From an uncultured delta proteobacterium (GTDB lineage: Bacteria; Desulfobacterota; Binatia; Binatales; Binataceae): a stretch of DNA of 64,000 nucleotides. Positions 25-24,821 of this stretch are shown here, in pieces (the stretch's first letter is position 1; each line of letters starts with the position of its first letter). The translations under genes were made by a program, and so were the position numbers. Under the pieces are notes generated by a model. The model did no database searches. It was not told the DNA's origin and saw only the letters and a list, made by a program, of their open reading frames with translations. The stretch covers positions 672,001 to 736,000 of the forward strand of contig CAWJET010000001.1 in NCBI GenBank assembly GCA_963842085.1, in the 5' to 3' direction.

Positions 25-2352
25 TTAGAACTTGTATTGCAAACTCATATAAGCGGTGTTTCCGGTGAAAGGTGTCCAGTTGGAGTTGCCCAGGAACACC
101 GACTGAGGCGACGCCGCCATCCAGGGTGTCAACCGGTCGTAGCCGAAGTCATTCTCGCCAAAGTTGCTGAAAAGGTAGCCGATGGTCAGCGCCATGTTCT
201 TACGGAAAGGATAGCGGTAGGTGACAATCAACTCGTGGAAGCGCGAACCGACGTCCGGGAAACTCGTCGCTGGGCCAAGGGCGGCATCGCCATTTGCGTG
301 CGTTGCGTCATTCGTAACCGTGTAGTTGTACTGCGCTTGTATGGTCGAGGCGTTCGGTAGCACCTGGTTGGCGGGTATCGTGGCGTTAAAACCAACGTCA
401 ATTGAATTGCCCTGCTCACGACCGTAGCTAGTCCAAGTCTGACCAGGGCAAGTTGCGGGAGTTTGATGCTCGGGAACGGACGGACACTTTGGCTCACCCA
501 CGCCGCCCGGCTGGCGCTGGAAGGAGTTGAGATTCCAGTCCGTGGCGGTCCACGACCAGTCAGCATGCAGGTTTAGTCCCGCGAGCGGGGTCCAATTCAT
601 GCCGACGGAGGGGGTGTAGTCGGACCAGTGCTGCAGACCGAAGTCCGAGGACGGATATGAGTAATCGTCGTAGTCCATCTCGGCATAGAGCGTCAGCGGT
701 TTGAGCCACGGATTTTCTTCCAGCCAGGGGTTGCCTTCCCCGGCTTGAAAGGGCTGGGCGTCCGAATACAGCGAGAACTGATTGACGTGCACTGAGGCCT
801 CGTCGAAGCGGGTCAATTGACTGAACTCGGTTAAGCCGCCGTTCTGATTAACCAGACTCGTGCGATTGTTGTTATAGCCGGGAGAGTCACGGTCGGCATA
901 CTGGTACGAACCCCGCAACTCAAGCCATTCGTAGGGAGTCCAATCCAGCACCGGACCATACGAGGTCGTGTCTTGCTGCAGCACCATCATGCCGCCGTTG
1001 TGATTAGTCTGAATGTTGCCGACCAGACTGGCCACCATCGTCTCGGTTATGTTGTAGCTCGCTTCGCCCTGGATGTTCTGTGTGGAAAAAGCGAAGGGAT
1101 AAGCGGTGGCGCTCCACAGGCTGGCCGTATCATTCAATGAAAATACGTCCTTGAAGGTCACAGCGGGATCATGGTTGTCGTAGTCGAAGTAGCTGTAGGT
1201 GGCCTTTAGCCGCAGGCGGTCCAGCGGCCGGCTGACGACGCTGAAGTTGGCGAAGAATGGCGACACGTCACCGCCCAAGCTCTGCCGGGGAAGCGCTTGG
1301 GAGGGCAAGGCACCGTTGATCGTGAACGGGATGAAGCCCTGGTTCTGAAGCCACCATCCGTAAGAGACGCTGCCCATGAGGTGCGTGTCCATCGGCAGGT
1401 TGAGACCGGCGGTAGCCTCGAAAGTATGAGCCTCGTTGTCGGGGTAGGTGAAGTCGCGGCCGTTGCAGGGCCCAATGCCAGCGGAGCCCCCACCCGAGTA
1501 AATCGGAGAGTCAACGCAAGAACCGCCGGGGCCAGTCATTTCGCCCCAGGTGTTGGGGTTCTGCCAGGTAAGTGTGCTGTACTGGTTCTTGAAGAATGAG
1601 CCCTGATACTGAAGCCCGAGCAGCCAGGTTCCGTTAGCCCACTGCACGCCGACGCCGTAATTGTAAGTGTCGTACTCGATCGGCCGCGAAAGCTCGGTGA
1701 TATTGTACGCACCGGGGTTAGGACCGAACATTTCGCCATACTGGTTGTTGCCGCTTGGGTTCTGGAAATTGAAGTATGCCGAGTAGGTCCACTGGGGCGT
1801 AGGCGTGTAGCGGATGTTCAGGTTGGCGATCCCCTCCAACAGGCTGAGTGACAGCGGCTGGTCAGTCTTGTTTAGCCAGGAGGCGATGTTCGGACCCACG
1901 GTCGGCGTAGGCGCCGCTGGCTTCGAGGGCAGAGTGAAGTTGCCACCATTTTGCTGGTAAGGGCTCTCGGCAATGTCGTCGCTCAGAAAATGCGGAATTT
2001 CCTGCCACTGCGCATCGACATCCAGCAGGCCGTATTCCCCGAAATGGAGGTCGTACAATTCGTTGGTCTGGCCAACGTTGAGGGCGTGGAAGTCCGCGAA
2101 CGTCCGGCCCTCCTTGTCCTGAAGCAGTAACTTCAGCTCGGGCGATATTATCTGCTGCGCGAGGTCCTGATATTCGCGGAACTTGGCGACGTTGGTGGCC
2201 GGTACATTCTGCAGAAAAGCTCCGACCTCGGCCGAGCCCGTTGCGGTGTAATTGCTGCCGACGTTGACCTGGGCGGCGACGAACCGGGGTGTCAGCGTGA
2301 GCACTGTTAGAGCGATGACGAACGGTCGAAATATGAAACGCGGTAAATTCAT
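25..2352 (-). CDS. mtrB: MtrB/PioB-family decaheme-associated outer-membrane beta-barrel
   Basis: 775 aa; signal peptide; AKFREY motif near the N-terminus; aromatic-rich alternating strands; C-terminal YKF; directly downstream of a decaheme cytochrome; GAGGAGG RBS. Confidence 0.9.
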   Translation of the reverse strand: MNLPRFIFRPFVIALTVLTLTPRFVAAQVNVGSNYTATGSAEVGAFLQNVPATNVAKFREYQDLAQQIISPELKLLLQDKEGRTFADFHALNVGQTNELYDLHFGEYGLLDVDAQWQEIPHFLSDDIAESPYQQNGGNFTLPSKPAAPTPTVGPNIASWLNKTDQPLSLSLLEGIANLNIRYTPTPQWTYSAYFNFQNPSGNNQYGEMFGPNPGAYNITELSRPIEYDTYNYGVGVQWANGTWLLGLQYQGSFFKNQYSTLTWQNPNTWGEMTGPGGSCVDSPIYSGGGSAGIGPCNGRDFTYPDNEAHTFEATAGLNLPMDTHLMGSVSYGWWLQNQGFIPFTINGALPSQALPRQSLGGDVSPFFANFSVVSRPLDRLRLKATYSYFDYDNHDPAVTFKDVFSLNDTASLWSATAYPFAFSTQNIQGEASYNITETMVASLVGNIQTNHNGGMMVLQQDTTSYGPVLDWTPYEWLELRGSYQYADRDSPGYNNNRTSLVNQNGGLTEFSQLTRFDEASVHVNQFSLYSDAQPFQAGEGNPWLEENPWLKPLTLYAEMDYDDYSYPSSDFGLQHWSDYTPSVGMNWTPLAGLNLHADWSWTATDWNLNSFQRQPGGVGEPKCPSVPEHQTPATCPGQTWTSYGREQGNSIDVGFNATIPANQVLPNASTIQAQYNYTVTNDATHANGDAALGPATSFPDVGSRFHELIVTYRYPFRKNMALTIGYLFSNFGENDFGYDRLTPWMAASPQSVFLGNSNWTPFTGNTAYMSLQYKF

Positions 2353-2385
2353 CGACCTGTTCCTCCTCGTAAACCTTGGCTGCGC

Positions 2386-3465
2386 TCACCGAGTCAAGTC
2401 CACGCCACCGGGTGCATTTGATCCGTGAATCGCCGAATGACAATTGGTGCAAGCCTGGCTGAAGACAAATACCGTGCCCCGGCCAGACGGCGTGCCCGGA
2501 TGGAACGTCCCGATGTGGCACTGCTGGCACAACCGGGGCGGTCGCATCTTAAGCATCGAGCGGTTTATCGCACCGTGCGGGTCATGGCAGTTCAGGCAGT
2601 CCTGCACGACCGGTGGATGCATCCATAGGAACGGGCCGCGCTTCTCGGCGTGACAGGTGTAACAGGTCTCATTGACGGTGGCGCGCACCAGTTGATTAGG
2701 ATAAGGGCCGCCGTGTGGGTTGTGACAGTCGGTGCAGGTCATGAGTCCCTCGAACAGCGGCATGTGCGAGGGCAGCGTCATTTGCATCTTCTGCTTCAGG
2801 TGACAGCGCAAGCAGACCTGGGTCTCCGGGCGAGTGATGATGAAAGGATTCGACTCCATCGCCGACGCGAGCTGAAAGCGGGGACTTATCTGGCGCATAA
2901 TGGTGTGGCAGTCGGTGCAGCGTAAGCCGCGAAAGGCGTGAGTGCTTGCGTGCCAAAAGGCCTGCGCTCCGTTGTTGTGGCAATTCAGGCAGGCCGCGTT
3001 TTGCTGATCTGCCGCTTCCCCGGAATCGGCTCGGAAACTGATTACCCCGCCAGTACTAGGGCCGTGCATCACTTCGTCAGGCTTCTCATTTCGCCCCATA
3101 GCTTGAGCCATCGCGCCGACATAGCGACTGCCGGGTCCATGACAGGATTCGCATCCCCGCCCTTGCGCCTCGTCGCGAGGATGCTCGAGCATGATCTTGC
3201 CCATCATGGTCTGGCTAAATTCGTGTGTTACTCCTTGATGGCAGCTTTCACAGACTTTGTCACCCAGGTAAGTCGCAAGCGGCGCGGATTGGGCTGGAGT
3301 TACGGATTGCCCATTCGGCTGCGGTGAAGGCGCGACCGGCGTACTCGATGCGGCCGGCGGGGAGGCAGACGCCGCGGCGGCGGCGCCGCATCGATAACAG
3401 ACGAACACCACCCCGACCAGGACAAGGATAGCGATTCGCGGAAATCGCTTGAGGAAAGCAGTCAT
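2386..3465 (-). CDS. mtrA: MtrA/MtoA/DmsE-family periplasmic decaheme cytochrome c
   Basis: 10 CxxCH motifs counted; AEKRGPFLWMHPPV and CHSAIHGSNAP family motifs; start moved to MTAFLKR (signal peptide). Confidence 0.93.
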   Translation of the reverse strand: MTAFLKRFPRIAILVLVGVVFVCYRCGAAAAASASPPAASSTPVAPSPQPNGQSVTPAQSAPLATYLGDKVCESCHQGVTHEFSQTMMGKIMLEHPRDEAQGRGCESCHGPGSRYVGAMAQAMGRNEKPDEVMHGPSTGGVISFRADSGEAADQQNAACLNCHNNGAQAFWHASTHAFRGLRCTDCHTIMRQISPRFQLASAMESNPFIITRPETQVCLRCHLKQKMQMTLPSHMPLFEGLMTCTDCHNPHGGPYPNQLVRATVNETCYTCHAEKRGPFLWMHPPVVQDCLNCHDPHGAINRSMLKMRPPRLCQQCHIGTFHPGTPSGRGTVFVFSQACTNCHSAIHGSNAPGGVDLTR

Positions 3466-3508
3466 GGATGCGTACGGTCCCCGCGGCAAATTATCAGTAT
3501 TCTTGGTC

Positions 3509-4264
3509 CTACCGCAACTCGCCGCCGAGGGTGCGATGACGGCCTTGGTTGGCATCGTAACGTTGGTCGCCGCGCAGGTCCGCCAGCCTGCTAGAGAGCC
3601 ACGACAGCCACTCGTCCATTCCCTGGTTATCGCGTGCCGAAACCAACAGCAGGCGCGGCTGGGGCATCACCCTGGCGAGAGCGTCCTCGAATGATTGCGT
3701 GTGCACGTCTGGCAGATGCGGCAGCAGGTCGGCCTTGGTCAGCACGACCAGGTCGGCGCTGCGGAACATCACCGGGTACTTAAGCGGCTTGTCCTCGCCT
3801 TCAGTCACCGCCAGCGCGACTACATTCACGCGCTGACCCAGGTCGTAGACAGCCGGACAAACAAGATTGCCGACATTTTCGATGAAGAGTACGTCGCGAT
3901 CCTGCCAAGCGATGTCATGCAGGCCTCGATGCACCATCGCCGCGTCGAGATGGCAGGTTGACCCGGTCGTGATAGTGGCGGCCGGGATGCCGGCCGCGCG
4001 TAGGCGCTCGCCATCGTGGTCGGTGGCGAGATCGCCGCTGAGCGCGGCCAGCTTGACGCCGCGCGGAGCGAGAGCGCGCGCCGTCGCTTCGATGAGCGCT
4101 GTCTTACCTGAGCCCGGCGAGCCCATGAGATTTATCGCGAGCACGCCAGCAGAGGCGAAATGCTCGCGGTTGTGACGCGCTGCACTCTCATTCGCCTTGA
4201 GAATCCGCTCATGAAGGTCCACCGTGACGACTCGTTCGTCACCACAGCCGCAGGTCTGGCACAT
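3509..4264 (-). CDS. hypB: Hydrogenase nickel-insertion GTPase HypB
   Basis: MCQTCGC N-terminus, GSPGSGKT P-loop, CHLDA, ENVGNLVCPA, EGEDKPLKYP. Confidence 0.97.
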   Translation of the reverse strand: MCQTCGCGDERVVTVDLHERILKANESAARHNREHFASAGVLAINLMGSPGSGKTALIEATARALAPRGVKLAALSGDLATDHDGERLRAAGIPAATITTGSTCHLDAAMVHRGLHDIAWQDRDVLFIENVGNLVCPAVYDLGQRVNVVALAVTEGEDKPLKYPVMFRSADLVVLTKADLLPHLPDVHTQSFEDALARVMPQPRLLLVSARDNQGMDEWLSWLSSRLADLRGDQRYDANQGRHRTLGGELR

Positions 4265-4605
4265 CAGTTCACCTCCATCTCGATTCTGGTCAGCAGGATT
4301 TCATCCCCCTGGGCCAGGCATGCCGCGCCGCCGCACCCTACGCAGCGAAGCGCTCCATGCCGGGGAAGCTCGCAGCCGCACTGGCTGCACTTCCATACCG
4401 CCAGGACCGGCTCGATGGAAAGTGCTGCCTCTGCGCAAACTGTGCGCTCGCGGAAGATCTCATACGCGGTGGCGAGCAGGTCGCGATCGACGCCCGAAAG
4501 CTCGCCGACGCGCACGCAGACCCGGCGCACGGCGGTTGCGCCACGCGAGCGCGCCGTCGTGTCAACCTGCTCTATCAGCGCGCCTATAACCGAATACTCG
4601 TGCAC
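4264..4605 (-). CDS. hypA: Hydrogenase nickel metallochaperone HypA
   Basis: MHEYS N-terminus, two CxxC motifs, GDE motif. Confidence 0.95.
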   Translation of the reverse strand: MHEYSVIGALIEQVDTTARSRGATAVRRVCVRVGELSGVDRDLLATAYEIFRERTVCAEAALSIEPVLAVWKCSQCGCELPRHGALRCVGCGGAACLAQGDEILLTRIEMEVN

Positions 4606-4617
4606 CTACAATCCCTC

Positions 4618-5481
4618 TCACGCGCCGTTGAATTTCGGCGTCCGCTTCGCAATAAACGCCGCGAGTCCGTCGGCAAAGTCCGGCCCATTGGCGACTCGCG
4701 TCAGGCTCTCGAGTTCGCCATCGAGATGGCGATCGAGCATGTCCATGCCGCACGCCTGGTTGATGAGGGCCTTGGCCTCTGCCCAGGCGCGCGTGGGTCC
4801 CGCGGCCAGGCGCTCAACCAAGGCGAAGGTTTCAGCCTCGAATGTTTCATTGGGATGTACTGCCGTGACCAGCCCGATTTCCAGAGCGCGTCTCGCATCC
4901 AGCCGCGGGCTAAGGAACACGAGTTCCAGCGCACGCCTGAGTCCGAGCAGGCGCGGGAGCAGGAAGGTCGAGCTTTCGGCGCCGGTCAGCCCGGTCCGGC
5001 CGTAAGCCCATTCGAAGCTGGCGCGCTCGGAAGCGATGACCAGGTCGCACGCCATCGCGATTCCGAAACCGCCGGCCGCTGCAATCCCGTCCACCGCCGC
5101 CACGAACGGCTTTGCTGCCCGCCGGATCTCGGAGATGGTGCTGTGGATATACTCGACAATTTCCTTCAGCACTTCGCCGAAGCCCGCGCTTTGAGTTGTC
5201 GCCTCCGGTTTGAGGTAGTCGAGTTCGCGCTCATTCCCACCCGTTCGCACATATTTGAGATCGGCGCCGCTGCAAAATACGCCGCCCGAGCCGCGAATCA
5301 CCACCGCGCGCACTGACTCATCGCGCGCCAGCCGCAAACCCGCGCGCCGCAGATCCTGAGCGGTCGCAACGTCGAGCGAGTTGAAGTGCTCACGACGGTC
5401 GATGGTGATGACGCCCACGCCTGCGCGTGTGTCACACAGAACGTGTGGCGACGGGCGACGAGTTGGCTCTTTGACTTCCAT
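4618..5481 (-). CDS. Enoyl-CoA hydratase/isomerase (crotonase) family protein resembling the HypX C-terminal domain
   Basis: FCSGADL, KPFVAAVDGIAAAGG, ACDLVIAS crotonase motifs; AYGRTGLTGAESSTFLLPR; lies between hypE and hypA. Confidence 0.85.
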   Translation of the reverse strand: MEVKEPTRRPSPHVLCDTRAGVGVITIDRREHFNSLDVATAQDLRRAGLRLARDESVRAVVIRGSGGVFCSGADLKYVRTGGNERELDYLKPEATTQSAGFGEVLKEIVEYIHSTISEIRRAAKPFVAAVDGIAAAGGFGIAMACDLVIASERASFEWAYGRTGLTGAESSTFLLPRLLGLRRALELVFLSPRLDARRALEIGLVTAVHPNETFEAETFALVERLAAGPTRAWAEAKALINQACGMDMLDRHLDGELESLTRVANGPDFADGLAAFIAKRTPKFNGA

Positions 5482-5489
5482 GGTACTGC

Positions 5490-6521
5490 TCAGCAAATGC
5501 GCGGCAACGGTTCGCCTTCAGGTTCGGAGAGCAAGCGGCGGCCGAAGCCAGTGTCGAGAATCAGGCGCCCGGGCCGCTCTGCCGTGCAGGTCGCGACGAT
5601 CGCGGCGTTGCGGCCGAGCGGATGAGCGCGCAGGGCGTTAAGTACGCGCTCCGCGGATTCCGCGCGCACCCCGATGAGCGCCTTGCCCTCGTTGGCCACC
5701 ATCAGCGGGTCGATCCCAAGCAGCTCAGCCGCGGCGCGCACACCGGCGTTCAGCGGCACGCTTGGGCCGTTGAGCACGATCCCGACGCCGGCCTTTTGCG
5801 CCATTTCGCAAAGCGCGCTGACCACGCCGCCGCGCGTCGGATCCTTCATCGCAACCACGCCGTCGCCACCTGCGTCGAGCGCCTGGCGGACCATCATATT
5901 GAGAGGCGCCACATCCGACCGCAGATCGCCTTCGAGCGCGAGTTCGTGCCGGCACGCCATCACCGCGAGTCCGTGATCGCCGGCGGTTCCGCTGAGAATG
6001 ATCAGGTCGCCCGGCTTTAGGCCGGAATCGGGAACAACGCGGCGCGAGAGCGCGATGCCCGTCGTATTGAGCACGAGCCCGTCGATCTCGCCGCGGCCCA
6101 TGACCTTTGTGTCGCCGGTTAGAATCCGCGCGTCCGCCTCGCGGCAGGCAGCCTCGATTGAGTCGCGGACGCGTTCGAGGTCAGCGCGGGAAAACCCTTC
6201 TTCGACCACCACCGCGCAGGTGAGCGCCAGAACGTCGGTCGCACCCATCATCGCCAAGTCGTTGACAGTACCGGCGACCGCCAGCCGCCCGATATCGCCG
6301 CCGGGGAAAAAGATCGGACTGATCACGTGCGAGTCGGTGGTGATGACCAGCCATTGGTCCCCGAGCGCGATGGCCGCGCCGTCGTCCATTGCTGCCAGAC
6401 CGATTCCCGGCCCCGGCACGCCGTCCAACCGGTCGACGAAGAGTTCCTTGATGAGCGCGCGCATCGCGCGTCCACCGGCTCCATGCTTGAGCCCGATTCT
6501 GCTGTCTTCTTCGTCGACCAT
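5490..6521 (-). CDS. hypE: Hydrogenase maturation protein HypE
   Basis: HGAGG, TTDSHV, GTVNDLAM, DPTRGG, ANEGK, C-terminal PRIC. Confidence 0.97.
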   Translation of the reverse strand: MVDEEDSRIGLKHGAGGRAMRALIKELFVDRLDGVPGPGIGLAAMDDGAAIALGDQWLVITTDSHVISPIFFPGGDIGRLAVAGTVNDLAMMGATDVLALTCAVVVEEGFSRADLERVRDSIEAACREADARILTGDTKVMGRGEIDGLVLNTTGIALSRRVVPDSGLKPGDLIILSGTAGDHGLAVMACRHELALEGDLRSDVAPLNMMVRQALDAGGDGVVAMKDPTRGGVVSALCEMAQKAGVGIVLNGPSVPLNAGVRAAAELLGIDPLMVANEGKALIGVRAESAERVLNALRAHPLGRNAAIVATCTAERPGRLILDTGFGRRLLSEPEGEPLPRIC

Positions 6522-6531
6522 GGCGTCAGTT

Positions 6532-7665
6532 TCAACTACCCAAATCGGGCCTGCCTCCGTACTCCAGCCAGATGCGGCAAGTCCCTTCACTGCTCACCAT
6601 GCATGCGCCCACCGGATGGTCCGGCAAGCATTTGGTGCCGAAGAGCGGGCAGGCGCTCGGCGTTGCGATACCGGCCATGATGTCGCCGCATATGCACTGC
6701 GCGGCAAGCCGGGGCGGTGCGTACGACCACAGGCCGGTGAGGTCGATCTTGAAGCGCCGGCGTGCGTCGACCTGCGCCCATTCGTCGCGCAAGCGCAGGT
6801 TGCCGTTGGGCACGTGCGCAATTCCGCGCCATCGACCGCCGATCGACCGAAACACCCGCCACAACGCCTCCTGAGCATTGCGGTTTCCCTCGCGCGTGAC
6901 GCACCGCGGATAGGCGTTGACCACGGCCGCACGGCGATCACGAATCAGCTCGAGCAGGCGTGCGAGTCCGGCCAGAATATCGAGCGGTTCGAAGCCGGCC
7001 ACTACGACGGGTATATGATGATGCTCGACGAAACGCTCGAAGACTCCCCATCCAGTGATGGCGGCTGCGTGGCCCGCCGCAAGAAACCCTTCGACCCGTG
7101 TCGCAGGCATTTCGGCGACTATCTCCATCACCGGCGGGATGTACTTGTGAGCGGAGAGAACCGAGAAGTTGGATGGCGTGCCGGCCAGCAGGGCCGCCGC
7201 GGTGGCGACGGCTGTGGTCTCGAAGCCGCTGGCGAAGAACACCAGCTCTTCATCAATGCGGCGCGCCAGTTCCACCGCCTGCGACACGCTGTAGACGACG
7301 TCCACGCGCGCGCCATCCGCCCTCGCGTCTGCCAGCGACTTGACGCTTCCGGGCACGCGCAGCATGTCGCCGTAGGTCGCAATTCTCACTCCTGCAAGCG
7401 CAAGCGCGACCGCCTCGTCAACCTCGGGCAGATCGGTCACGCATACCGGACAGCCCGGTCCCATGATCACGTCGAGCGCGCGGGGCAAGCTGGCCCGCAA
7501 GCCGAAGCGCGCGATTGCCTGCTCGTGGCTTCCGCACACGTGCATCACTGAGATTGGCGCGCGGCCGATAGATTCGCACAGCCGGCCGAGCAGCGCGGTG
7601 AGCTCGCGTCCGCGCCGGGGATCGCGGAACTCGAGCACGCGGCCGTTCATCTGGCTGTCATCCAT
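6532..7665 (-). CDS. hypD: Hydrogenase maturation protein HypD
   Basis: CGSHE, GPGCPVC, GFETT, GACMVSSEGTC. Confidence 0.97.
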   Translation of the reverse strand: MDDSQMNGRVLEFRDPRRGRELTALLGRLCESIGRAPISVMHVCGSHEQAIARFGLRASLPRALDVIMGPGCPVCVTDLPEVDEAVALALAGVRIATYGDMLRVPGSVKSLADARADGARVDVVYSVSQAVELARRIDEELVFFASGFETTAVATAAALLAGTPSNFSVLSAHKYIPPVMEIVAEMPATRVEGFLAAGHAAAITGWGVFERFVEHHHIPVVVAGFEPLDILAGLARLLELIRDRRAAVVNAYPRCVTREGNRNAQEALWRVFRSIGGRWRGIAHVPNGNLRLRDEWAQVDARRRFKIDLTGLWSYAPPRLAAQCICGDIMAGIATPSACPLFGTKCLPDHPVGACMVSSEGTCRIWLEYGGRPDLGS

Positions 7666-7948
7666 CTTTTTTTCTCTCGCCAGCCGCAATTTCGCCGCGC
7701 ACGTCGGCCGCCATCAAATCCTCGCGCTCGGCTTCGCGCAGCAATTCCTCGTAAAGGGCAAGGGTGGCTTCGACCTCCGCGGCGGGAATCTTGCGGATCG
7801 CGTAACCGACATGATTGAGCACGTAGTCGCCGGGACCGACCGGCTCGTCAACGATGTCGAGCAGGACCTCCTTGCGCACGCCCCAGAAATCGACGGTCGC
7901 GACGGAACCTGAAACTCCGACCACTCTGCCCGGTACACCGAGGCACAT
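7658..7948 (-). CDS. hypC: Hydrogenase chaperone HypC
   Basis: MCLGVPG start overlapping the hypF stop (TGATG); GDYVLNHVGYAI. Confidence 0.96.
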   Translation of the reverse strand: MCLGVPGRVVGVSGSVATVDFWGVRKEVLLDIVDEPVGPGDYVLNHVGYAIRKIPAAEVEATLALYEELLREAEREDLMAADVRGEIAAGERKKDG

Positions 7949-10320
7949 CAGAGGCGGCCTCCCTTCGATTCGCGCACGCGTGCCGCGGCGACCATCGCTT
8001 GCCCGAGTGCGATACCGCCGTCTCCGGCCGGGACCTCGCGCGGCAAAAAAACCTGGGTAACGCCGGCCAGGGCGTCGAAGATTCCTTGCGCGAGCCGCGG
8101 ATTCTGAAAGCATCCGCCGCTCAGCACGACCGGGACTTGTCCGTGCTCTGCGAGCGCCGAGCGCACCGTCGCTGCTGTTCCTTCAATCAATGTGTTGTGA
8201 AAGCGCGCCGCGATCCGGCGGCGATCGGCGCCCGCGATAACTTCATGGACAATCCTGCGAACCATCGGCCGCAGATCCAGGCTCCACGGCTGCTGATTGC
8301 GATGGAGGGAAAATTCATAGACCCCGGTTTCACGGGGATCGGCGAGATTGTTGAGCATCATAGCGACCTGCCCTTCGTAGGCGGCATGCTGCTGCGCGAA
8401 GACCAGCGCACCAATCGCGTCGAAGTAGCGGCCGATGCCGTGCGCGCTTGCTGTATTCAGTCCGCTTGCGATCATGCGCCTTACGGTCGTCGCGGCGCCT
8501 GCATCGATCCGCGAGAAAAGCCCGAGCCGCTCGAATTCGTTAAACGACCCGCCGAAGGCATCCTCGATCAGCGCGAGCGCTAGCCGCCAGACCTCGCGCA
8601 CCGCGCGATCGCCGCCCGCCAGCGCGACCGGCCGAATCGTCGCAATCCGCTCGAAGCCGGCGAAATCCGCGAGCATCAACTCGCCGCCCCACATCGCGCC
8701 ATCGCTCCCGAGCCCCGACCCATCGAATGCGACCCCGAGAACCGGACCCGCAAGGCCGTGTTCCGCCATCGCACTCGCAACATGCGCATGATGATGCTGC
8801 ACCGCGACGGTAACGCACCCCTTGCGCCCCACCGCATAACGGGTCGAGAGATAATCAGGATGCAGGTCGTGCGCGATTATCTCGGGCTTCACGCCGACGA
8901 AGCCTTCCATCCTTGCGATCGACTCCTCAAAAGCCTCGTAGGTCTCGAGACCGTCGAGATCGCCGATGTGCGGACCGAACCAGATCGAATCCCCGCTGCC
9001 CAGGCAGAACGCATTTTTGAGTTGCGCTCCGACGGCCAGGACCGGTCGCTCGAATGGCGGATCGATTGGCACAGGACGTGGCACATAACCTCGCGAGCGG
9101 CGCAGCACGGTTGGAGCGCCTGCGATCATGCGCGCAACCGAGTCGTCGCATCGGGTCACGATTTCACGGTCGTGGATCAGAAAGAGGTCAGCAATCCCTC
9201 CCAGCCGAAGGAGCGCCTCATCGTTGCGATAGGCGATAGGTTCATCCGACCGGTTTCCCGACGTCATCACCAGCGGTCTCTGCGCTGCCGCCAGAAGCAG
9301 GTGATGCAACGGCGTGTACGCGAGCATGACGCCGACGAGCGGGGTTTCCGGCGCGACCTCGGCAGCGAGACCCGCATCCGGATGCCGGTGGGCGAGAACG
9401 ATCGGCCGCTCGGGCGAGGACAACAGTGCTCGCTCCGTGGGACCAAGAACGGCGAGGCGCTCGGCGTCTTCGAGCTCACGCACCATGACGGCGAACGGCT
9501 TTTCATCGCGATGTTTGCGGATGCGCAGCCGTGCGACCGCGGCCGCCGATGTGGCGTCGCAGGCGAGGTGAAACCCGCCAAGACCCTTGAGCGCGACGAT
9601 ACGCCCTTCGCGCACTGCGAGGGCCGCGTCGCCAATCGGGTGGCTCGATGCCAACTCGTCGCCCGCCGCTGCGAGCAGCCGCAGACTCGGGCCGCACTCG
9701 CGACAAGCGTTTGACTCCGCGTGAAAACGTCGATTACCGGGATCTCGGTACTCGCGCAGGCACTCGGCGCACATCTCGAACGCCGCCATCGTTGTCGCGC
9801 CGCGGTCGTAAGGGACATCACACGCGATCGTGAAGCGCGGGCCGCAGTTCGTGCAGTTGGTGAAGGCGTAACCGAAGCGGCGATCTCCGCGATCGAAGAT
9901 CTCGGCGACACATTCGCGACAGGTTGCCATGTCGGCGGGTATCGATACGCAGCGCTCCGCGCGCTGCTCGCTCGCGGCGATCTCGAAATGAGGCCGCTGC
10001 TCGAACTCCAGCAGGTTTGCCTGCACAGTCTTGAGTCGTGCCCGCGCAGGCGCCTCGGTAATCAGGCGACTGACAAAGCGGTCCAGCACTACGCGCGAAC
10101 CGAAGGCTTCTATAATGACGCCCGCCGCGTCGTTACGAACGCTGCCGGTCAGCCCCTCTTCACGCGCCAGCCGGTAGACGAAAGGCCGGAAGCCGACGCC
10201 CTGCGAAATTCCCGTCACTTTGATCTTGCGGCCCGCGAGTCCTGACACATCCATATCAGGGTCGACTGCATGGGACGGTGAGAAGCAGACGTCCGCGAGC
10301 TGTGGCTCCTCACCGTTCAT
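7948..10320 (-). CDS. hypF: Carbamoyltransferase HypF
   Basis: QGVGFRPFVY acylphosphatase domain, zinc fingers (CTNCGPR), KGLGGFHL, HHHAH, DGGIALGQ. Confidence 0.97.
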   Translation of the reverse strand: MNGEEPQLADVCFSPSHAVDPDMDVSGLAGRKIKVTGISQGVGFRPFVYRLAREEGLTGSVRNDAAGVIIEAFGSRVVLDRFVSRLITEAPARARLKTVQANLLEFEQRPHFEIAASEQRAERCVSIPADMATCRECVAEIFDRGDRRFGYAFTNCTNCGPRFTIACDVPYDRGATTMAAFEMCAECLREYRDPGNRRFHAESNACRECGPSLRLLAAAGDELASSHPIGDAALAVREGRIVALKGLGGFHLACDATSAAAVARLRIRKHRDEKPFAVMVRELEDAERLAVLGPTERALLSSPERPIVLAHRHPDAGLAAEVAPETPLVGVMLAYTPLHHLLLAAAQRPLVMTSGNRSDEPIAYRNDEALLRLGGIADLFLIHDREIVTRCDDSVARMIAGAPTVLRRSRGYVPRPVPIDPPFERPVLAVGAQLKNAFCLGSGDSIWFGPHIGDLDGLETYEAFEESIARMEGFVGVKPEIIAHDLHPDYLSTRYAVGRKGCVTVAVQHHHAHVASAMAEHGLAGPVLGVAFDGSGLGSDGAMWGGELMLADFAGFERIATIRPVALAGGDRAVREVWRLALALIEDAFGGSFNEFERLGLFSRIDAGAATTVRRMIASGLNTASAHGIGRYFDAIGALVFAQQHAAYEGQVAMMLNNLADPRETGVYEFSLHRNQQPWSLDLRPMVRRIVHEVIAGADRRRIAARFHNTLIEGTAATVRSALAEHGQVPVVLSGGCFQNPRLAQGIFDALAGVTQVFLPREVPAGDGGIALGQAMVAAARVRESKGGRL

Positions 10321-10724
10321 GTCTCACCCAGCGTGTGGATGTACGCGACCAGGTCCCAGATCTGGCGGTCGGTGAGCGTCGACCACGACGGCATCGCGGC
10401 CCCCTGGACGCCGTCATGAATCGCCCGATAAGTCTGCCACGCGTTCGCCGAATCGGACCATGGCGGGACTGTGAGATTGCCCGGCGGCGGCTCCATTCCC
10501 ATGCTGCGGACGCCGTGCCCGTCGCCTCTCTCGCCGTGGCAAATTACGCAATTCTGCATGAAGAGCGCGCGTCCTCTTTCTCTCGCCTCGCGCGACGCAA
10601 AGAGCCCGGATGGAGCCTGCGCTGCGCCGGGCGGTCTACCGCTCCTGCTGCACCCGATTATCGCGCACAACATCCCCAGCGCAGCTGTCGCGACCCTCCG
10701 CGCCACTCTTCGGCGACAGTTCAT
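10317..10724 (-). CDS. Monoheme cytochrome c, probable lipoprotein
   Basis: Single CVICH, distal AMP methionine, IIGC lipobox-like signal; start uncertain because of overlap with the protease ORF. Confidence 0.85.
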   Translation of the reverse strand: MNCRRRVARRVATAALGMLCAIIGCSRSGRPPGAAQAPSGLFASREARERGRALFMQNCVICHGERGDGHGVRSMGMEPPPGNLTVPPWSDSANAWQTYRAIHDGVQGAAMPSWSTLTDRQIWDLVAYIHTLGET

Positions 10725-11187
10725 ATCCAAGACCTCGAGCCTCACGCACTATCGCCTCGACCAGCCCCTCCAATCCCGCGTCGACAGGATCGGAACGCTC
10801 AATACTCAAATCCATTGTTTCCGGCACCAGTCCCAGCAAGGTGACCGAGGTTGGAAAAGAGTCGATGAGTCGCGCGGCGTCGAAAAGATCTGCAACCCCA
10901 ACCTGGTGAGGGGACAGGCGCTCGCGGACTGCGGGTGGCACCTCGTCTCCGTCGATTCGGACCAGTGTTCCCGGCGGAGCATCGACGCGAACCGCATCTA
11001 CCAGAATCACGTGTTCCGACTCGGCAAACAGCCCAAGCAGTGCGAGCCCAAGCGTGCCGCCATCTGCAACCCGAACCCGTGGCGGAATATTGTAATTGCG
11101 TTCGAGCCGAGCCACTGCGGCGGCGCCGAGTCCGTCGTCGCGAAGCAGTATATTGCCAAGCCCGAGAACCAATAATTCGTCAGGCAT
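10636..11187 (-). CDS. hyaD: Hydrogenase maturation endopeptidase (HyaD/HupD family)
   Basis: GLGNILLRDDGLG, DGGTLG, DAV, SPHQVG. Confidence 0.95.
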   Translation of the reverse strand: MPDELLVLGLGNILLRDDGLGAAAVARLERNYNIPPRVRVADGGTLGLALLGLFAESEHVILVDAVRVDAPPGTLVRIDGDEVPPAVRERLSPHQVGVADLFDAARLIDSFPTSVTLLGLVPETMDLSIERSDPVDAGLEGLVEAIVREARGLGYELSPKSGAEGRDSCAGDVVRDNRVQQER

Positions 11188-11896
11188 CGCGTTTCCTCTC
11201 CGCGACGCCTTCCGGGCCTACGCGCTTGTACCCCGAAAATATCGAATCGATGATCCCGCTGCGCTCCGTCATAGAAAAAAGAGTCGCCGAGTACACGTGA
11301 TGAATCATGAAGATCAGGAGCAACCACATCCCGACATGATGGACCAGGCGCACCATCTGAAGTCCGCCGAAAATCGGGATCAGGAACCCGAAGAACTGAA
11401 AAGGCGAGTTCACTCCGGCATAGACGGTATAGAGAGCGAGACCGGTGCCGATCATTGTGAAGTAGATCAAGAAGATAACTGCGTAGGTTGCACCGGCCAT
11501 CCCGCTGTGGCCGGCGTACGGCTCCGGGTCGCGGCGCACAAAGCCATAAAAGCGCATCGACTGCCAGATGCTGCTAAAGCGTTCGCGCGTGACCGGAATG
11601 AACTGGTGCCAACGCGCATAGTAATTGCCGGCGAACATCCAGTAGACACGCACAAATACCGACAAACTGAAGACGACGGCCGCATACAGGTGGATCAGGC
11701 GCATGGTGCCCATAACGAAGTGATCGCGGGCGGGCCCACTGACTGCGATAAACGGATGACCTATATAGAAGCCCGTAACCGCAAGCACTGCGATCGAAAG
11801 AACGATCAGCCAGTGCGTGATGCGCACCGGCAGTTCCCAGGCATAGACAAGGCCGGAGCCGGGCGGCTCCGGCACAGGCCGCGGCAGTGCGCTCAC
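11180..11896 (-). CDS. hyaC: [NiFe]-hydrogenase cytochrome b subunit
   Basis: WELPVRITHW, four hydrophobic helices, His ligands (IHL, VHH, HHVY); GTG start overlaps the large-subunit stop. Confidence 0.93.
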   Translation of the reverse strand: MSALPRPVPEPPGSGLVYAWELPVRITHWLIVLSIAVLAVTGFYIGHPFIAVSGPARDHFVMGTMRLIHLYAAVVFSLSVFVRVYWMFAGNYYARWHQFIPVTRERFSSIWQSMRFYGFVRRDPEPYAGHSGMAGATYAVIFLIYFTMIGTGLALYTVYAGVNSPFQFFGFLIPIFGGLQMVRLVHHVGMWLLLIFMIHHVYSATLFSMTERSGIIDSIFSGYKRVGPEGVAERKRDA

Positions 11897-13602
11897 AGGA
11901 CCTTGACGCGGGCCAACTCGCGCCTCCTGGCGTCCACCACGTGAACGCCGCACGCCATGCACGGATCGAATGAGTGCACCGTGCGGAGTATTTCGAGTGG
12001 TTGATCCGGCTTCGCCACCGGAGTGCCGACGAGCGACGCCTCGTAAGGACCCGGCTGGTTCGCATGGTCCCGCGGGCCGGCATTCCAGGTGCTCGGCACG
12101 ACACACTGGTAGTTCACGATCTGGCCGTTGCTGATGTGAACCCAGTGGCCGAGAGACCCGCGCGGCGCTTCGTGAAAGCCGGCGCCGTAACAGTCGGCGG
12201 GCCAGCTCTCCGGCTCCCATTTCGAGTTGTCCTGGATACGGTAGTCACGGCGCGCCATGTTCTCGCCCAGGGCGGTTACCCAGTCGCCCATCTTTTCCAC
12301 CACGACCTGAGTCTCAATGGCGCGCGCCGCCACTCGCCCCAAGGTCGAGAACAGCGCTTGCGGTCCAACGCCGAGCGCCGCCAGGGCTTTGTCAACCAGT
12401 TGCTTGACCTGCGCCGGCCGGCCCGACACGTACGCGACCAGCATGCGCGCGAGCGGCCCAACCTCCATCGGCGCACCCTCATAGCGCGGTGATTTGAGCC
12501 AACTGTACTTCTCCGCCAGCACCAGTCGTTCGTACGGCGGCTTGGGTCCGGTGTAATGCGGGTCGGTTTCCCCCTTGTACGGATGTAGCGCTTCGCTGTC
12601 GCCGCCTGAATATTCGTACCAGGAATGTGCGACCTGCTCCGTGATCTTTCCCTGGTCAACCGGCTCGACCTTTGAAATATCGCGCCCCCGGATTATCCCG
12701 GATGGCATCCATAGCTCAGGATTTTCGCTGTCGTCCTCGGGATAATCGCCATACACCATGTAGTTGCCGACGCCCGCGCCGATCGAAGCCCAATCCTTAT
12801 AGAATGATGCGACTGCCAGGACGTCGGGCAAATAGACACGCTTGACGAAGTCGCGGCCTTCGGCGATGAGCTTGTCGAGCGCCGAGATCGTGTCGGCGTT
12901 GAGCGCGGCTTGCGAGTCGGGATCAACCGGCGTCGCCATGCCACCGACCAGGAAACTTTGCAGGTGCGGATTTTTTCCGCCCAGGATCGCATGGATCTTG
13001 ATGAAGCGCCGCTGCCAGTCGAGCGCCTCCAGATAATGCGCAACCGCCATCAGATTCGCCTCGGGCGGCAGGCGGTACGCCGGATGACCCCAGTAGGCGT
13101 TAGCGAAGGGCCCAAGCTGGCCGCGCTGAACGAACGTACTGATCCGGTCGCGTACTCCCGAAAAATACTTTGCACTCGACAGCGACCAGTCTGAGATCGA
13201 CTGGGCAAGCGTGGCGGTCTTGGCCGGATCGGCCTTGAGCGCCGAGGTGATATCGACCCAGTCGAGTGCATGCAGATGGTAGAAATGGATCACGTGGTCG
13301 TGGACGCACTGCGCCGCGATGATGAGGTTGCGCAGCAGCCGCGCGTTGGGCGGCGGTTGCGCGCCGATTGCGTGCTCGACGGCGCGAATCGAGGCGATCG
13401 CGTGAACTGTGGTGCAAACTCCGCAGATGCGTTGGGTGAAGACCCATGCGTCACGCGGATCTCGCCCCTTGAGAATGATCTCGATGCCGCGAAACATCGT
13501 CGACGACGACCAGGCCTCATTCACCTTGCCGCCATCGACTTCGGCTTCTATTCGGAGATGCCCTTCGATGCGCGTTATCGGATCAACGACGACGTGGGTC
13601 AT
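11893..13602 (-). CDS. hyaB: Group 1 [NiFe]-hydrogenase large subunit
   Basis: DPITRIEGH; L1 QRICGVCTTVH; L2 SFDPCMACGVH plus cleavable C-terminal tail. Confidence 0.97.
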   Translation of the reverse strand: MTHVVVDPITRIEGHLRIEAEVDGGKVNEAWSSSTMFRGIEIILKGRDPRDAWVFTQRICGVCTTVHAIASIRAVEHAIGAQPPPNARLLRNLIIAAQCVHDHVIHFYHLHALDWVDITSALKADPAKTATLAQSISDWSLSSAKYFSGVRDRISTFVQRGQLGPFANAYWGHPAYRLPPEANLMAVAHYLEALDWQRRFIKIHAILGGKNPHLQSFLVGGMATPVDPDSQAALNADTISALDKLIAEGRDFVKRVYLPDVLAVASFYKDWASIGAGVGNYMVYGDYPEDDSENPELWMPSGIIRGRDISKVEPVDQGKITEQVAHSWYEYSGGDSEALHPYKGETDPHYTGPKPPYERLVLAEKYSWLKSPRYEGAPMEVGPLARMLVAYVSGRPAQVKQLVDKALAALGVGPQALFSTLGRVAARAIETQVVVEKMGDWVTALGENMARRDYRIQDNSKWEPESWPADCYGAGFHEAPRGSLGHWVHISNGQIVNYQCVVPSTWNAGPRDHANQPGPYEASLVGTPVAKPDQPLEILRTVHSFDPCMACGVHVVDARRRELARVKVL

Positions 13603-14710
13603 GCTCGGGGCCCTCTGAACTGCTCTTGGAACCGGCCGGCTCGGTTCCCGTGTGATGCCGCACGATCTGGCCGACACCATGGGCGACCGACGCCGCGCCC
13701 ACAATTCCCGCCGCGGCCAAGCCAATCCGATCGAGGTTGGCGTTCACGTTGAATCCAGGAACATTGGGCAAGCGCCGATAGAAAGGCGTCATGGTGTCCC
13801 AGAAATTCGGCTCCGCACAGCCGACACACGGATGGCCGCAGCCGATCGGCCAGTTCGTGCCCTCATTCCATCGCACTTCCGGACAGTTTTGCGAGGTCGC
13901 GGGCCCTTTGCATCCCATCTTGTACAGGCAGGCGCCGTTCCGATGGGCTTCGTCGCCCCAAGCCTCGACGTACTGTCCGGCATCGAAGTGTGCGCGCCGT
14001 TCGCAGTTGTCGTGGATGAGTTTTCCGTAGGCGAAAAGCGGACGCCGGTACCGATCCAGTGGCGGCCACTGCTTCATGGTCATGTAGTAAACAATTAGCG
14101 CCGTTATGTTCTCGGCGTTCATCGGGCATGCTGACATATTGATCAGGTTGTTGACGCCCGGCACCGCATCGCCGACCGAGACCGCGCCGGTCGGGTTGGG
14201 GCGCGCCGCCGGTATCCCGCCGAAGGTCGCGCAGGTGCCGACCGCGATCGTTGCCGCAGCCTTGCCGCACACTTCGCGCGCGATCTGCAAAGCGCTGCGA
14301 CCGCCGATGGTGCAATAGGCTCCGTCGGCACCTGTGGGAATCGCTCCTTCAACCAGGGCTATGTACTTTCCCGCGAAGTCGCGAACCGTGCTGTCAAGCG
14401 CGCTCTCAGCTTGAAAGCCGGCTGCAGCCATCAGGGTTTCGTGGTAGTTCAGCGAAATCGAATCCAGGATGAGGTCACCGACGGTCGGGTGACTCGCGCG
14501 CAAAAACGACTCCGTGTTACCGGCACAGTCCTGAAACTCGAGCCAGACGAGAACGGGCTTCGGCGCCATCTCGATATTTGCGGCAATCATGCTGGCCGCC
14601 GTCTCCGGCATCGCCAGCAGCGTCGCCATCGAGGCACAGAATTTCAGGAAATCGCGGCGTGACACGCCGCGGTACGCGAGCTCTTTACCCAGCCAGCTAT
14701 TGGACGCCAT
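13583..14710 (-). CDS. hyaA: Group 1 [NiFe]-hydrogenase small subunit (Tat-exported, membrane-anchored)
   Basis: SRRDFLK Tat motif, DCAGN proximal motif, HDNC, CLYKMGCKGP, HPCVGC, C-terminal anchor with His; AGGAGG RBS. Confidence 0.97.
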   Translation of the reverse strand: MASNSWLGKELAYRGVSRRDFLKFCASMATLLAMPETAASMIAANIEMAPKPVLVWLEFQDCAGNTESFLRASHPTVGDLILDSISLNYHETLMAAAGFQAESALDSTVRDFAGKYIALVEGAIPTGADGAYCTIGGRSALQIAREVCGKAAATIAVGTCATFGGIPAARPNPTGAVSVGDAVPGVNNLINMSACPMNAENITALIVYYMTMKQWPPLDRYRRPLFAYGKLIHDNCERRAHFDAGQYVEAWGDEAHRNGACLYKMGCKGPATSQNCPEVRWNEGTNWPIGCGHPCVGCAEPNFWDTMTPFYRRLPNVPGFNVNANLDRIGLAAAGIVGAASVAHGVGQIVRHHTGTEPAGSKSSSEGPEHDPRRR

Positions 14711-14791
14711 CGGCGGTCCTCCTGCTAGAACAACCCGGTGGTTGGAGTCTCGTGGCGTGCTGCGCACGCCGCACCCTCTGTGAATAGGCGA

Positions 14792-14820
14792 CCTATACTC
14801 TCGCGAGAATTAATTTGCAA
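14792..14820 (-). promoter_or_regulatory. Possible sigma70-type promoter of the hydrogenase-mtrAB operon
   Basis: TTGCAA-17 nt-TATAGG on the minus strand about 80 nt upstream of the small-subunit start. Confidence 0.35.
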
Positions 14821-14908
14821 ACTCACGCGCGGCGATCTTGCGCTAACCTCTTCGATTCAGCGCCGTGCGCTGAATCCCGAGGCGCGAGGGACTTAGCGAT
14901 TGGGATAA

Positions 14909-15094
14909 CTACTCAGGTGTCGCGCCACCTTGTTTGAGCTCGTTTTCCGCCTGCAGCCAATCGTCCAGTTCGCTGCCTGGGCCGCCATTGCGGGCGCAAT
15001 ATATCTCGTAGGCGCGGCTACGGATGTCGTCTTCCGGCAGCTGCGGCTTCTGTCCGAGGACCGGCTTCTGGTTGGCCTCTTTTTTCTCTGCCAT
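14909..15094 (-). CDS. DUF2934-family small protein
   Basis: IRSRAYEIY...DDWLQAENEL signature; AAGGAG RBS. Confidence 0.85.
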   Translation of the reverse strand: MAEKKEANQKPVLGQKPQLPEDDIRSRAYEIYCARNGGPGSELDDWLQAENELKQGGATPE

Positions 15095-15405
15095 TTTTGG
15101 TCTCCTTCTTGTTGCCGCCCACCTTTGAGTTACTGCACGGCGGTCAACGTTGCTTCCGATCGGCCCATCCAGCAGAGTCGGTGTATCCAAAGGATGCAGA
15201 TTCGATTCACGTCTCATGCCGATCGACTAAGTCTGATTACGAACCATGTTCAGTACAAAAGGAGTTATGTTCAAGGCCGATTCCGTTACATCGGGAACGA
15301 ACCTCCGGTTGTTTTCACCCGTGGTTTGTCGTTACATCCGGCGACTGCGCTCGACGCCACCGATTTGACGGGGGCGCGTTTCTGGACTTATAGGACACTG
15401 AGGTC

Positions 15406-20779: not shown

Positions 20780-20794
20780 GAGGAGAAAATTGTA

Positions 20795-21730: not shown

Positions 21731-21805
21731 GCAGGGCTTCGGATTTCCACCGGATCCAGGTCAGCTTGAGGGCGGCAAACCGACACCGAGGCGGAGGATA
21801 AAGCG

Positions 21806-24377
<2,572 letters not shown>

Positions 24378-24392
24378 CGGAGGAGCCGGATC

Positions 24393-24812
24393 ATGAGAAT
24401 TACACAGGGAGCGTTCTCGTTCCTTCCCGATTTCACGGAAGACGAAGTCCGCGCGCAGCTCGAGTATTGCCTGCGCAACGGATGGGCAATAAACATCGAG
24501 TACACGGACGATCCGCATCCGCGCAACAGCTACTGGGAGTTGTGGGGACAGCCGATGTTCGATCAGAAGGATGCGGCCGCCGTGCTGGCTGAACTGGATG
24601 AGTGCCGCAAGGTACACCCGAACCATTACATAAAGATTAACGCCTTCGACTCGTCCAAGGGGCGCGAGTCGATTGCGCTCTCCTTCATTGTCAACCGGCC
24701 CCGCAAGGAGCCTGGCTTCGTTCTGGTCCGGCAGGAGGGGACAGGCCGCACAGTCCGCTATACTATTCGCAGCTACGCCACCGACCGGCCCGAAGGCGAA
24801 CGATACGATTGA
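24393..24812 (+). CDS. cbbS: RuBisCO small subunit, red-type
   Basis: [19 protein letters not shown], red-type C-terminal extension. Confidence 0.97.
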
Positions 24813-24821
24813 TGACGGCGT

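Follow-up and report, generated by a model that had tools for sequence, protein, structure and literature searches.

Introduction

Shewanella couples H2 oxidation to Fe(III) reduction through its Mtr proteins (PMC7784907). In Shewanella oneidensis MR-1, HyaABC, CymA and MtrCAB provide, on paper, periplasmic H2 oxidation, passage through the quinone pool, a tetrahaem and a porin-cytochrome conduit (PMC7784907, PMC8805035). In Deferribacter autotrophicus the genes of a three-subunit hydrogenase of group 1f (FHQ18_02875-02890) adjoin a multihaem cluster (FHQ18_02900-02990) with candidate Fe(III)-reduction cytochromes; the authors of that study suggest co-expression for lithoautotrophic iron reduction, and the two clusters are apart in a sister species (PMC6896113). 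Here we analyse a locus of the Binataceae in which a [NiFe]-hydrogenase operon, including its hyp maturation genes, runs directly into mtrA and mtrB, the genes of a decahaem cytochrome and its outer-membrane barrel. It lies in a window of 64,000 nucleotides, positions 672001-736000 of contig C1 in genome G000 (4.93 Mb in two contigs, rated 100% complete), and the closest named relatives of its MtrA are records of Candidatus Binataceae and Ca. Binatus.

A preliminary description of this DNA had proposed a dedicated H2-to-mineral or electrode wire, or its reverse, encoded as one transcription unit. We found that the joined feature is real, larger than first noted, old, and repeated inside Binataceae. 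With a probability that we put at roughly 0.45, it would be a mobile, mosaic Binataceae operon for a self-contained respiratory loop that is fed by H2 and ends outside the cell, in which electrons would pass from H2 to quinone, a CymA-like protein, MtrAB and finally Fe(III) or humics.

Extent and Conservation of the Joined Unit

A minus-strand run of 14 genes spans window positions 14710 to 25, and every gene received a family assignment with Pfam and NCBIfam, which bore out the identities proposed in the preliminary description. From hyaA to mtrB the 13 junctions measured -20, -4, -8, -89, -4, -1, -8, +10, +8, +12, -1, +43 (hypB-mtrA) and +33 bp, in agreement with the claim of 14 same-strand genes with overlaps or gaps below 45 bp. 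Gene starts were picked by eye, and those of the monohaem cytochrome c (cytc1) and hypE are the least sure. The span first proposed, 25 to 14710, was thus recovered, and it proved to be only part of the run, which extends at least 7 genes past window base 1 with gaps past mtrB of 27, 114, -4, -4, 22, 27 and -4 bp, in that order. Since the DNA similarity of G000 to genomes G007 and G021 ends just past the NapC/CymA-type tetrahaem gene, the conserved unit is taken as 21 genes in about 21 kb. The identical 21-gene order is found in G007 and G021, and as these are genomes of two other species, the hypB-mtrA join is not an assembly accident.

All genes of the unit are under purifying selection (omega 0.04-0.41, G000 versus G021). 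In the same comparison dS ranges over 0.30-0.68 to either side of the join, hyaC excepted, with gyrB at 0.36; considering that both halves have similar dS and are under purifying selection, the join is old. The exception is marked: HyaC of G000 is 63-64% identical to the G007 and G021 copies, which are 91% identical to each other, and its gene has a dS of 2.1-3.5 versus about 0.5 for the flanking genes. By these values hyaC of G000 is a swapped allele. Genome G369 has two hyaC copies in tandem, and at locus L064 hyaC occupies the slot of the cytochrome b partner of an 11-haem protein; the cytochrome b subunits look interchangeable. A second exchange was noted in G007, where the flanks are the same but mtrAB is 65% identical to G000 at the DNA level and comes with a different spacer; stand-alone copies in G012, G070 and G030 match this mtrAB at 82-84% identity. 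A single clade for the three joined MtrA copies was rejected (p-AU 3.5e-6, 15 rows). As judged from these alignments and trees, the slot after hypB holds two unrelated mtrAB alleles. The carriers of the join are not sisters in the gyrB tree (weakly resolved, 30 of the 47 genus genomes), which fits transfer or repeated loss.

This MtrA type was found in 17 and this hydrogenase type in 5 of the 47 genomes of the genus. In the family (165 genomes) the figures are 33 and 13, with both in 7, so the MtrA type is present in 7/13 genomes with this hydrogenase versus 26/152 without it (Fisher p 0.005, a value that is overstated because kin genomes are not independent). The preliminary description had called for a search of other genomes for mtrAB near hyp genes, and the linkage was found intact in G007 and G021 and as relics in G420, G360, G245 and G468; its refuting condition, that the linkage would occur nowhere else, thus did not hold. 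In G420, from another genus, the hydrogenase block (HyaB 94% identical) leads into a spacer like that of G021 and then into two fragments of the 3' end of mtrB; these are followed by a cytochrome c gene and a gene for a six-haem protein, which by eye resembles NapC-like six-haem proteins. By these remnants, G420 lost mtrAB by deletion. In G360, G245 and G468, from a third genus, a clade-2 mtrA is immediately preceded by scraps of hyaA, which differ, and by the DUF2934 gene, and the divergent Crp-family regulator is also kept in G360 and G468. The conduit genes (mtrA, mtrB, cytochrome c, napC) have intact frames in G360 and G245, and the frames of G468 are broken. Judging from the scraps, these three genomes lost the hydrogenase and the join was once wider. 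L064 is a clade-3 mtrAB operon with an interrupted mtrA; it contains an internally deleted hyaB, and an intact hyaC fills its cytochrome b slot.

Looser layouts also occur. Hydrogenase and conduit are divergent and 5.2 kb apart in G404 and convergent in G406; in G369 an 11-haem cytochrome and a cytochrome b lie between hyaD and the hyp genes, across two contigs; and in G012 mtrA follows a group 1h-type cluster by 2 kb. G115, from another family, has hypB, a cytochrome c and a NapC-like six-haem protein, facing an MtrA-type decahaem with an unclassified porin; as this porin matched no MtrB model, G115 was counted as a looser parallel only.

The 43-bp spacer between hypB and mtrA has a related version in G021 and G420, and the G007 spacer differs. 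The terminator scan of the window gave 13 sites versus 11.2 ± 3.3 in shuffles, that is, chance level, and none of them falls at hypB-mtrA. An intrinsic terminator there was accordingly rejected, as the preliminary description had surmised. A 16-pair hairpin over the hypB stop has no U tract and a z of -1.65, with 13 of 200 shuffles equally good, and by eye it is not kept in G021. One transcription unit across hypB-mtrA is likely on these sequence features, and the relics lend indirect support to a single promoter, since their conduit stays behind the hyaA leader after loss of the hydrogenase.

The hyp block contains a strongly conserved stand-alone crotonase gene (omega 0.07) that was found in 27 of the 401 genomes of the class, beside hyp genes at every locus read; it marks this type of hyp block. 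A multihaem gene accompanies 9 of these 27 blocks versus 3.3% of 20-kb G000 windows, and the other 18 show none (the 27 stretches are 10-20 kb and of unequal length, and three were checked by tblastn only). Among 80 GTDB MtrA loci the join was not repeated outside Binataceae. Four had a hydrogenase-related match. Of these, L064 is the case with the deleted hyaB and the hyaC described above, L052 is the same cassette and was not counted apart from the numbered genomes, and in L092 a GSU2203/GSU2204-type pair and, about 3 kb further on, a hydrogenase do not form a single run. The weak cytochrome b match of L075 was rejected as a hydrogenase linkage. The recurring theme is a hydrogenase with a quinol-to-periplasm exit, which MtrAB completes only in few Binataceae. 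As a separate observation, among the metagenomic matches listed, L155, L160 and L161 have a 7- to 9-haem cytochrome directly after hypB, with a cytochrome b in two of them, an arrangement that we take to be a CbcL-like parallel.

Components of the Unit

The HyaA protein carries a twin-arginine signal (SRRDFL) and a C-terminal hydrophobic anchor, and HyaB has intact L1 (QRICGVCTTVH) and L2 (FDPCMACGVH) motifs. Together with the cytochrome b and the protease, these are the features of a group 1 membrane-bound uptake [NiFe]-hydrogenase. hyaB is the only PF00374 gene of G000, and its product is the sole [NiFe] enzyme of the genome. O2-tolerant enzymes of group 1d have additional cysteines at the proximal cluster. 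The proximal-cluster motif here is CAGN, in which Asn replaces the second Cys of the standard enzyme, and supernumerary Cys are absent from the copies in the window, G007 and G021, which rules out group 1d. Group 1c (Hyb) was also ruled out, as there are three subunits here versus four with HybA and HybB; a Hyb-like layout occurs in G061, with a HyaB identity of 46-49%. The layout of three subunits plus protease is that of the D. autotrophicus group 1f enzyme. By exclusion, by layout and by the prevalence of group 1f in Binatota, rather than by HydDB reference placement, the hydrogenase is probably of group 1f; 22 of 33 Binatota hydrogenase sequences fall in that group (Murphy et al. 2021, PMC8262859). 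In the plasmid search all hydrogenase matches were below 60% identity.

In the conduit, MtrA has 10 CXXCH motifs and an N-terminal signal, and it matches chain 6r2q_A (E 7e-50); we take 6r2q to be the Shewanella MtrABC structure. MtrB, encoded directly downstream, matches 6r2q_B (E 1e-11) and scored 198.9 with TIGR03509, below the cut-off of 240. In the MtrA tree the Binataceae sequences form three clades, grouping with neither MtoA nor Shewanella MtrA, and the window copy falls in clade 1; this phylogeny is uninformative on electron direction. G000 also has a second mtrAB (C1:1817255-1821133, L050), which belongs to clade 3 and is 54%/49% identical to the first; behind it come a cytochrome c and a cytochrome b-c fusion, and no hydrogenase gene lies nearby.

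A CXXCHXM first haem is typical of NrfH/CymA, and it was found in 12/12 aligned copies of the tetrahaem that closes the unit. The two five-haem proteins between the conduit and the tetrahaem have 187 relatives, the few named ones being from Ca. Binatus and Acidobacteriota, and the pair accompanies kelch and TPR genes, before or after mtrAB. Searches of PDB sequences and with Foldseek gave only short or weak matches (best Foldseek E 0.83, not significant). The structural model (pLDDT 74.6) reached an Atlas TM of 0.44-0.50, and its top six structural matches belong to the group of NrfA, octahaem nitrite reductase, OcwA and the Carboxydothermus S-layer undecahaem, with Z of 5.0-5.9, rmsd of 4.1-6.3 and 169-196 residues; the next row has Z 2.9, and a Z below 8 is only a lead. 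The active-site haem of NrfA is CXXCK. This motif occurs in 0/103 aligned sequences, so the five-haem proteins lack this NrfA feature. The same 103 sequences (pair at L001 17137-19439) have an invariant CX8CH, two invariant Met and four or five free His; a lipobox-like motif was seen in only 2 of them. It is possible that CX8CH binds a non-canonical sixth haem. The pair are weak candidates for terminal or relay cytochromes replacing MtrC; alternatively, a five-haem protein might act as a periplasmic reductase. Beyond a 240-bp gap after the tetrahaem, G000 alone has a cytochrome c, an 11-haem cytochrome and an FdnI-type cytochrome b.

Table 1: Features of the hydrogenase-conduit unit and its upstream region. 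Positions are those of the window unless given with G000:C1.
Feature	Position	Strand	Evidence
Crp-family regulator, divergent, candidate regulator	15406-16155	+	
DUF2934 gene	14909-15217	-	
Leader and candidate promoter of the unit	14711..14830	-	Comparison of G000, G007, G021
hyaA, small subunit	13583..14710	-	PF01058, PF14720, TIGR00391 over cut-off; aligned to 1h2a_S, 8pou_S
hyaB, large subunit	11893..13602	-	PF00374
hyaC, b-type cytochrome, quinone-reducing subunit	11180..11896	-	TIGR02125 over cut-off
hyaD, maturation protease	10636..11187	-	PF01750, TIGR00072
cytc1, monohaem cytochrome c, His/Met type by motif, start uncertain	10317..10724	-	PF00034/PF13442
hypF	7948..10320	-	TIGR00143 over cut-off
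hypC	7658..7948	-	TIGR00074 over cut-off
hypD	6532..7665	-	TIGR00075 over cut-off
hypE	5490..6521	-	TIGR02124 over cut-off
Crotonase, stand-alone, enoyl-CoA hydratase fold	4618..5481	-	PF00378
hypA, nickel insertion	4264..4605	-	PF01155
hypB, nickel insertion	3509..4264	-	TIGR00073 over cut-off
hypB-mtrA spacer, 43 bp	3466..3508	-	Terminator scan, spacer comparison
mtrA/mtoA-type decahaem cytochrome	2386..3465	-	TIGR03508, 235.5 bits (cut-off 192.2)
mtrB/pioB-type outer-membrane beta-barrel, C-terminal Phe	25..2352	-	PF11854, 259 bits (cut-off 23)
Cytochrome c	G000:C1 671997-671554	-	PF00034
Five-haem cytochrome, first	G000:C1 671439-670360	-	
Five-haem cytochrome, second	G000:C1 670363-669134	-	
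Kelch protein	G000:C1 669137-667833	-	
Zinc-ribbon/TPR protein	G000:C1 about 667849-666893	-	
Cytochrome c	G000:C1 666865-666512	-	
NapC/CymA-type (NapC/NirT) tetrahaem, last of conserved unit	G000:C1 666515-666000	-	PF03264 over cut-off

Proposed Electron Path and Direction of Flow

In the H2-fed loop that we favour, the periplasm-facing HyaAB, whose motifs are present, would oxidise H2, and HyaC, as expected from its family, would hand the electrons to the membrane quinone pool. Because HyaC reduces quinone, a hydrogenase of this type cannot touch MtrA, and its electrons can re-enter the periplasm only by way of a quinol oxidoreductase. The NapC/CymA-type tetrahaem would do so by re-oxidising quinol on the periplasmic side, closing a proton-moving redox loop; the small cytochromes c would then ferry the electrons through the periplasm, and MtrA in the MtrB barrel would deliver them to Fe(III) or humic quinones under scarce oxygen. 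The path from H2 outward is downhill and would move protons by the redox loop. Since the unit also encodes the tetrahaem and the periplasmic carriers, the path from H2 to the outer membrane is complete on paper. The proposed H2-to-mineral path would be a route through an indirect quinone loop and is not supported as a direct wire, the two halves being able to meet only through the shared quinone pool. Taking into account that coupling runs through this pool and through shared regulation, it is optional and either half can be lost. The word dedicated was likewise an overstatement, because either half survives alone: of the 33 family genomes with this MtrA, 26 have no hydrogenase of this type, and of the 13 with the hydrogenase, 6 have no MtrA of this type.

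The H2-fed loop draws on the tight packing with no terminator, on the quinol oxidoreductase and carriers encoded in the unit, on the shared order, age and purifying selection of the join, on the two alleles in the slot after hypB, on the relics and on the association of this hydrogenase with this MtrA and with multihaem genes. Outward flow is supported by the absence of RuBisCO from G007 and G021 and by the surroundings of the stand-alone conduit copies, which sit among genes of fermentation and stress (acetate kinase, phosphoketolase, ADH, PPDK and PPK2). A precedent is Shewanella, where H2 feeds Fe(III) reduction by way of Mtr although the genes are unlinked.

Several results weigh against an H2-fed outward loop. 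The gene order mtrA-mtrB-cytochrome c-tetrahaem matches the mto cluster of Fe(II) oxidisers. MtrC is missing: no TIGR03507 match over the cut-off was obtained in G000, and its only two ten-haem open reading frames (ORFs) are the MtrA copies. The small cytochromes c of the unit have, in the alignment, an invariant Met and no second conserved His, as in His/Met-type carriers, and they share a family with the cytochrome c domain that the nearby oxidase subunit II carries as a fusion. The search for a menaquinone pathway in G000 gave no MqnA, no MenD over the cut-off, a marginal MenB/BadI and MqnC-like matches under the cut-off. The role of group 1f hydrogenases is unsettled (PMC5037454). The direct hypB-mtrA join is rare, being seen in G000, G007 and G021, that is, 3 of 165 family genomes (34 of 35 MtrA matches were read for the join, and G331 was checked from the hypB side only), and at 7 of the 13 family loci of this hydrogenase no multihaem gene lies within the stretches examined. 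In G416 the ORFs after the hyp block have N-termini that by eye resemble the oxidase subunits of the window. Finally, mtrA or mtrB was found near 0 of 80 metagenomic hypB relatives among the matches listed, 60 of which have at least 600 bp downstream.

Some of these points suggest that the hydrogenase and an Mto-like conduit are two inlets under one promoter. H2 on one side and Fe(II), reduced humics or a cathode on the other would feed electrons inward to cytochrome c oxidase and, via the tetrahaem, to the quinone pool, supporting a mixotrophic or lithoautotrophic life at low oxygen. This possibility, which we consider real although somewhat doubtful, persists because MtrC is missing; it draws on the order shared with mtoA-mtoB-mtoD-cymA of Sideroxydans, on carriers of the His/Met type related to the oxidase-fused cytochrome c, and on two clusters that lie 5-22 kb upstream of hyaA in G000, one for an oxidase and one for the full Calvin cycle. 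Sideroxydans CL21 takes H2 as an alternative donor to Fe(II) (PMC7784907). However, no RuBisCO was detected in G007 and G021, and the Binataceae MtrAs do not group with MtoA. MtoA itself works outward in Shewanella, where it restores ferrihydrite reduction (PMC3274759), and the carriers of Sideroxydans lithotrophicus ES-1 lie at +155 and -143 mV, the latter value showing how low a His/Met carrier can sit (PMC13390432); for these reasons neither gene order nor carrier type fixes the direction.

The joined layout might also reflect shared regulation only, with modules shuffling in a low-oxygen accessory pool, the conduit hitch-hiking on the hydrogenase promoter and the Crp-family regulator, and electrons mixing in the quinone pool with no functional pairing. 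The loss of one half with the other intact (G420; G360 and G245), the frequent allele swaps in hyaC and mtrAB, the non-sister position of the carriers in the weakly resolved gyrB tree, and the varied layouts (divergent in G404, convergent in G406 and G115, and after the group 1h-type cluster in G012) would all be expected from it. We regard it as unlikely, since both halves stayed conserved while the join persisted over a dS of about 0.5, a second mtrAB allele came to fill the slot in G007, and the pairing of this hydrogenase with quinol-oxidising multihaem genes recurs at about 10 times the genomic background.

A reverse wire, in which electrons from minerals or partners would enter through MtrAB and be vented as H2, is very improbable: the periplasmic NiFe enzyme of Shewanella is reported to make and use H2 (PMC7784907), but a three-subunit enzyme linked to a cytochrome b has the architecture of the uptake type, and the passage from quinol to H2 is uphill and would cost proton motive force.

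Returning to the H2-fed loop, a bolder version of it is conceivable, although we hold it with some reserve. The unit would be a portable operon for H2-driven extracellular respiration moving between Binataceae, with the NrfA/OcwA-like five-haem pair, possibly with its sixth haem, replacing MtrC. It would turn an aerobic soil heterotroph into an H2-oxidising Fe(III) or humic reducer in one step, and would give the orphan group 1f a job.

Upstream Region and Neighbouring Genes

Comparison of G000, G007 and G021 revealed conserved TTGCAA...TATAGG-like hexamers in the leader of the unit, which the consensus promoter scan did not call. A leader hairpin (GGCGTG/CACGCC, window 14745-14775) has an inner pair that varies on both sides (C-G, G-C and A-U) in these three sequences; the Rfam scan of the window matched no family. 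The DUF2934 gene and the Crp-family regulator travel with the unit and with its relics. Upstream of hyaA the search for FNR/CRP boxes found only matches with 2 mismatches at unconserved places. Canonical FNR control is not supported, because by eye the Crp-family protein has no N-terminal cysteine cluster.

The Calvin-cycle cluster (glpX, prk, class II aldolase, rbcL and cbbX) occupies window 19799-25799, 5 kb from the hydrogenase. RbcL was found in 1/47 genus genomes, G000 alone; G000 may therefore be a rare autotroph of its genus, and autotrophy was rejected as the conserved purpose of the unit. Between the USP/CBS genes and this cluster, window 17887-19227 encodes an exported protein that is rich in repeats and includes a Peptidase_S74 chaperone domain. 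At window 26876-27874 lies the gene of an additional oxidase subunit II, which ends in a cytochrome c domain, and G000 has at least 4 CoxA-type genes. On the other side, a few kb downstream of the unit (G000:C1:649600-658300, L001 1-6300), lies a gas vesicle cluster with gvpA, a gvpN-like gene and others, together with a CDC48-like ATPase, in what is presumed to be a soil bacterium. Genes encoding a B12-binding domain (L033 11142-12881; L151 1494-3251) turn up repeatedly within these hydrogenase-cytochrome units or at their margin.

Comparison with Known Systems

The locus brings two open questions, the role of group 1f hydrogenases (PMC5037454) and the direction of MtrAB without MtrC, into one testable unit with its own maturation genes. 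For MtrAB pairs without MtrC the direction cannot be assigned from sequence. If the flow is outward, reduction of Fe(III) or humics with H2 from fermentation could be open to a lineage that is abundant in soil and peat, uncultured and described as aerobic, and this lineage would compete with methanogens for H2; if it is inward, the unit would be a two-donor lithotrophy module. It is also a natural template for H2-to-electrode engineering, for which the natural deletions of each half are ready comparisons.

The conduit half resembles the MtoAB-MtoD-ImoA(CymA) system of S. lithotrophicus ES-1, which has a decahaem, a barrel, a monohaem cytochrome c and a NapC-type tetrahaem in the same order and no MtrC (PMC3274759, PMC5566968, PMC13390432). 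It differs in that the cluster here follows a hydrogenase and hyp operon, includes two five-haem proteins, a kelch and a TPR protein, and has an MtrA from a separate Binataceae lineage. The monohaem cytochrome has an invariant Met, unlike MtoD, which is described as bis-His (PMC13390432). With S. oneidensis MR-1 the likeness is in the path and not in the gene arrangement, as the MR-1 genes are unlinked (hya/hyp at SO_2092-2099, mtr at SO_1776-1782 and cymA elsewhere) and MtrC caps the conduit there.

Mobile mtrCAB clusters with the passengers cymA, pdsA, mtoC and mtoD are likewise modular and horizontally moved, with their own quinol oxidoreductase and carriers; that survey required mtrC, and its main text contains neither "hydrogenase" nor "Binat" (Baker et al. 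2022, PMC8805035). The hydrogenases of Binatota (groups 1c, 1f, 1h and 1i) come from the same lineage, and HyaABC is drawn there as a respiratory H2-uptake enzyme; Murphy et al. 2021 tie these enzymes to aerobic respiration and pMMO, and "Mtr" is absent from their main text (PMC8262859). In the open full texts no report was found that places mtrAB within a hydrogenase-hyp operon or describes Mtr genes for Binatota, and supplements (e.g., of PMC8262859 and PMC8805035) could list such neighbours. The joined layout thus seems undescribed, and the parts and the chemistry are probably known ones. The nearest precedent is the hydrogenase of D. autotrophicus beside its multihaem cluster, which has no MtrA, MtrB or CymA homologue and is a case of adjacency (PMC6896113), where the Binataceae unit forms one tight run through the hyp genes.

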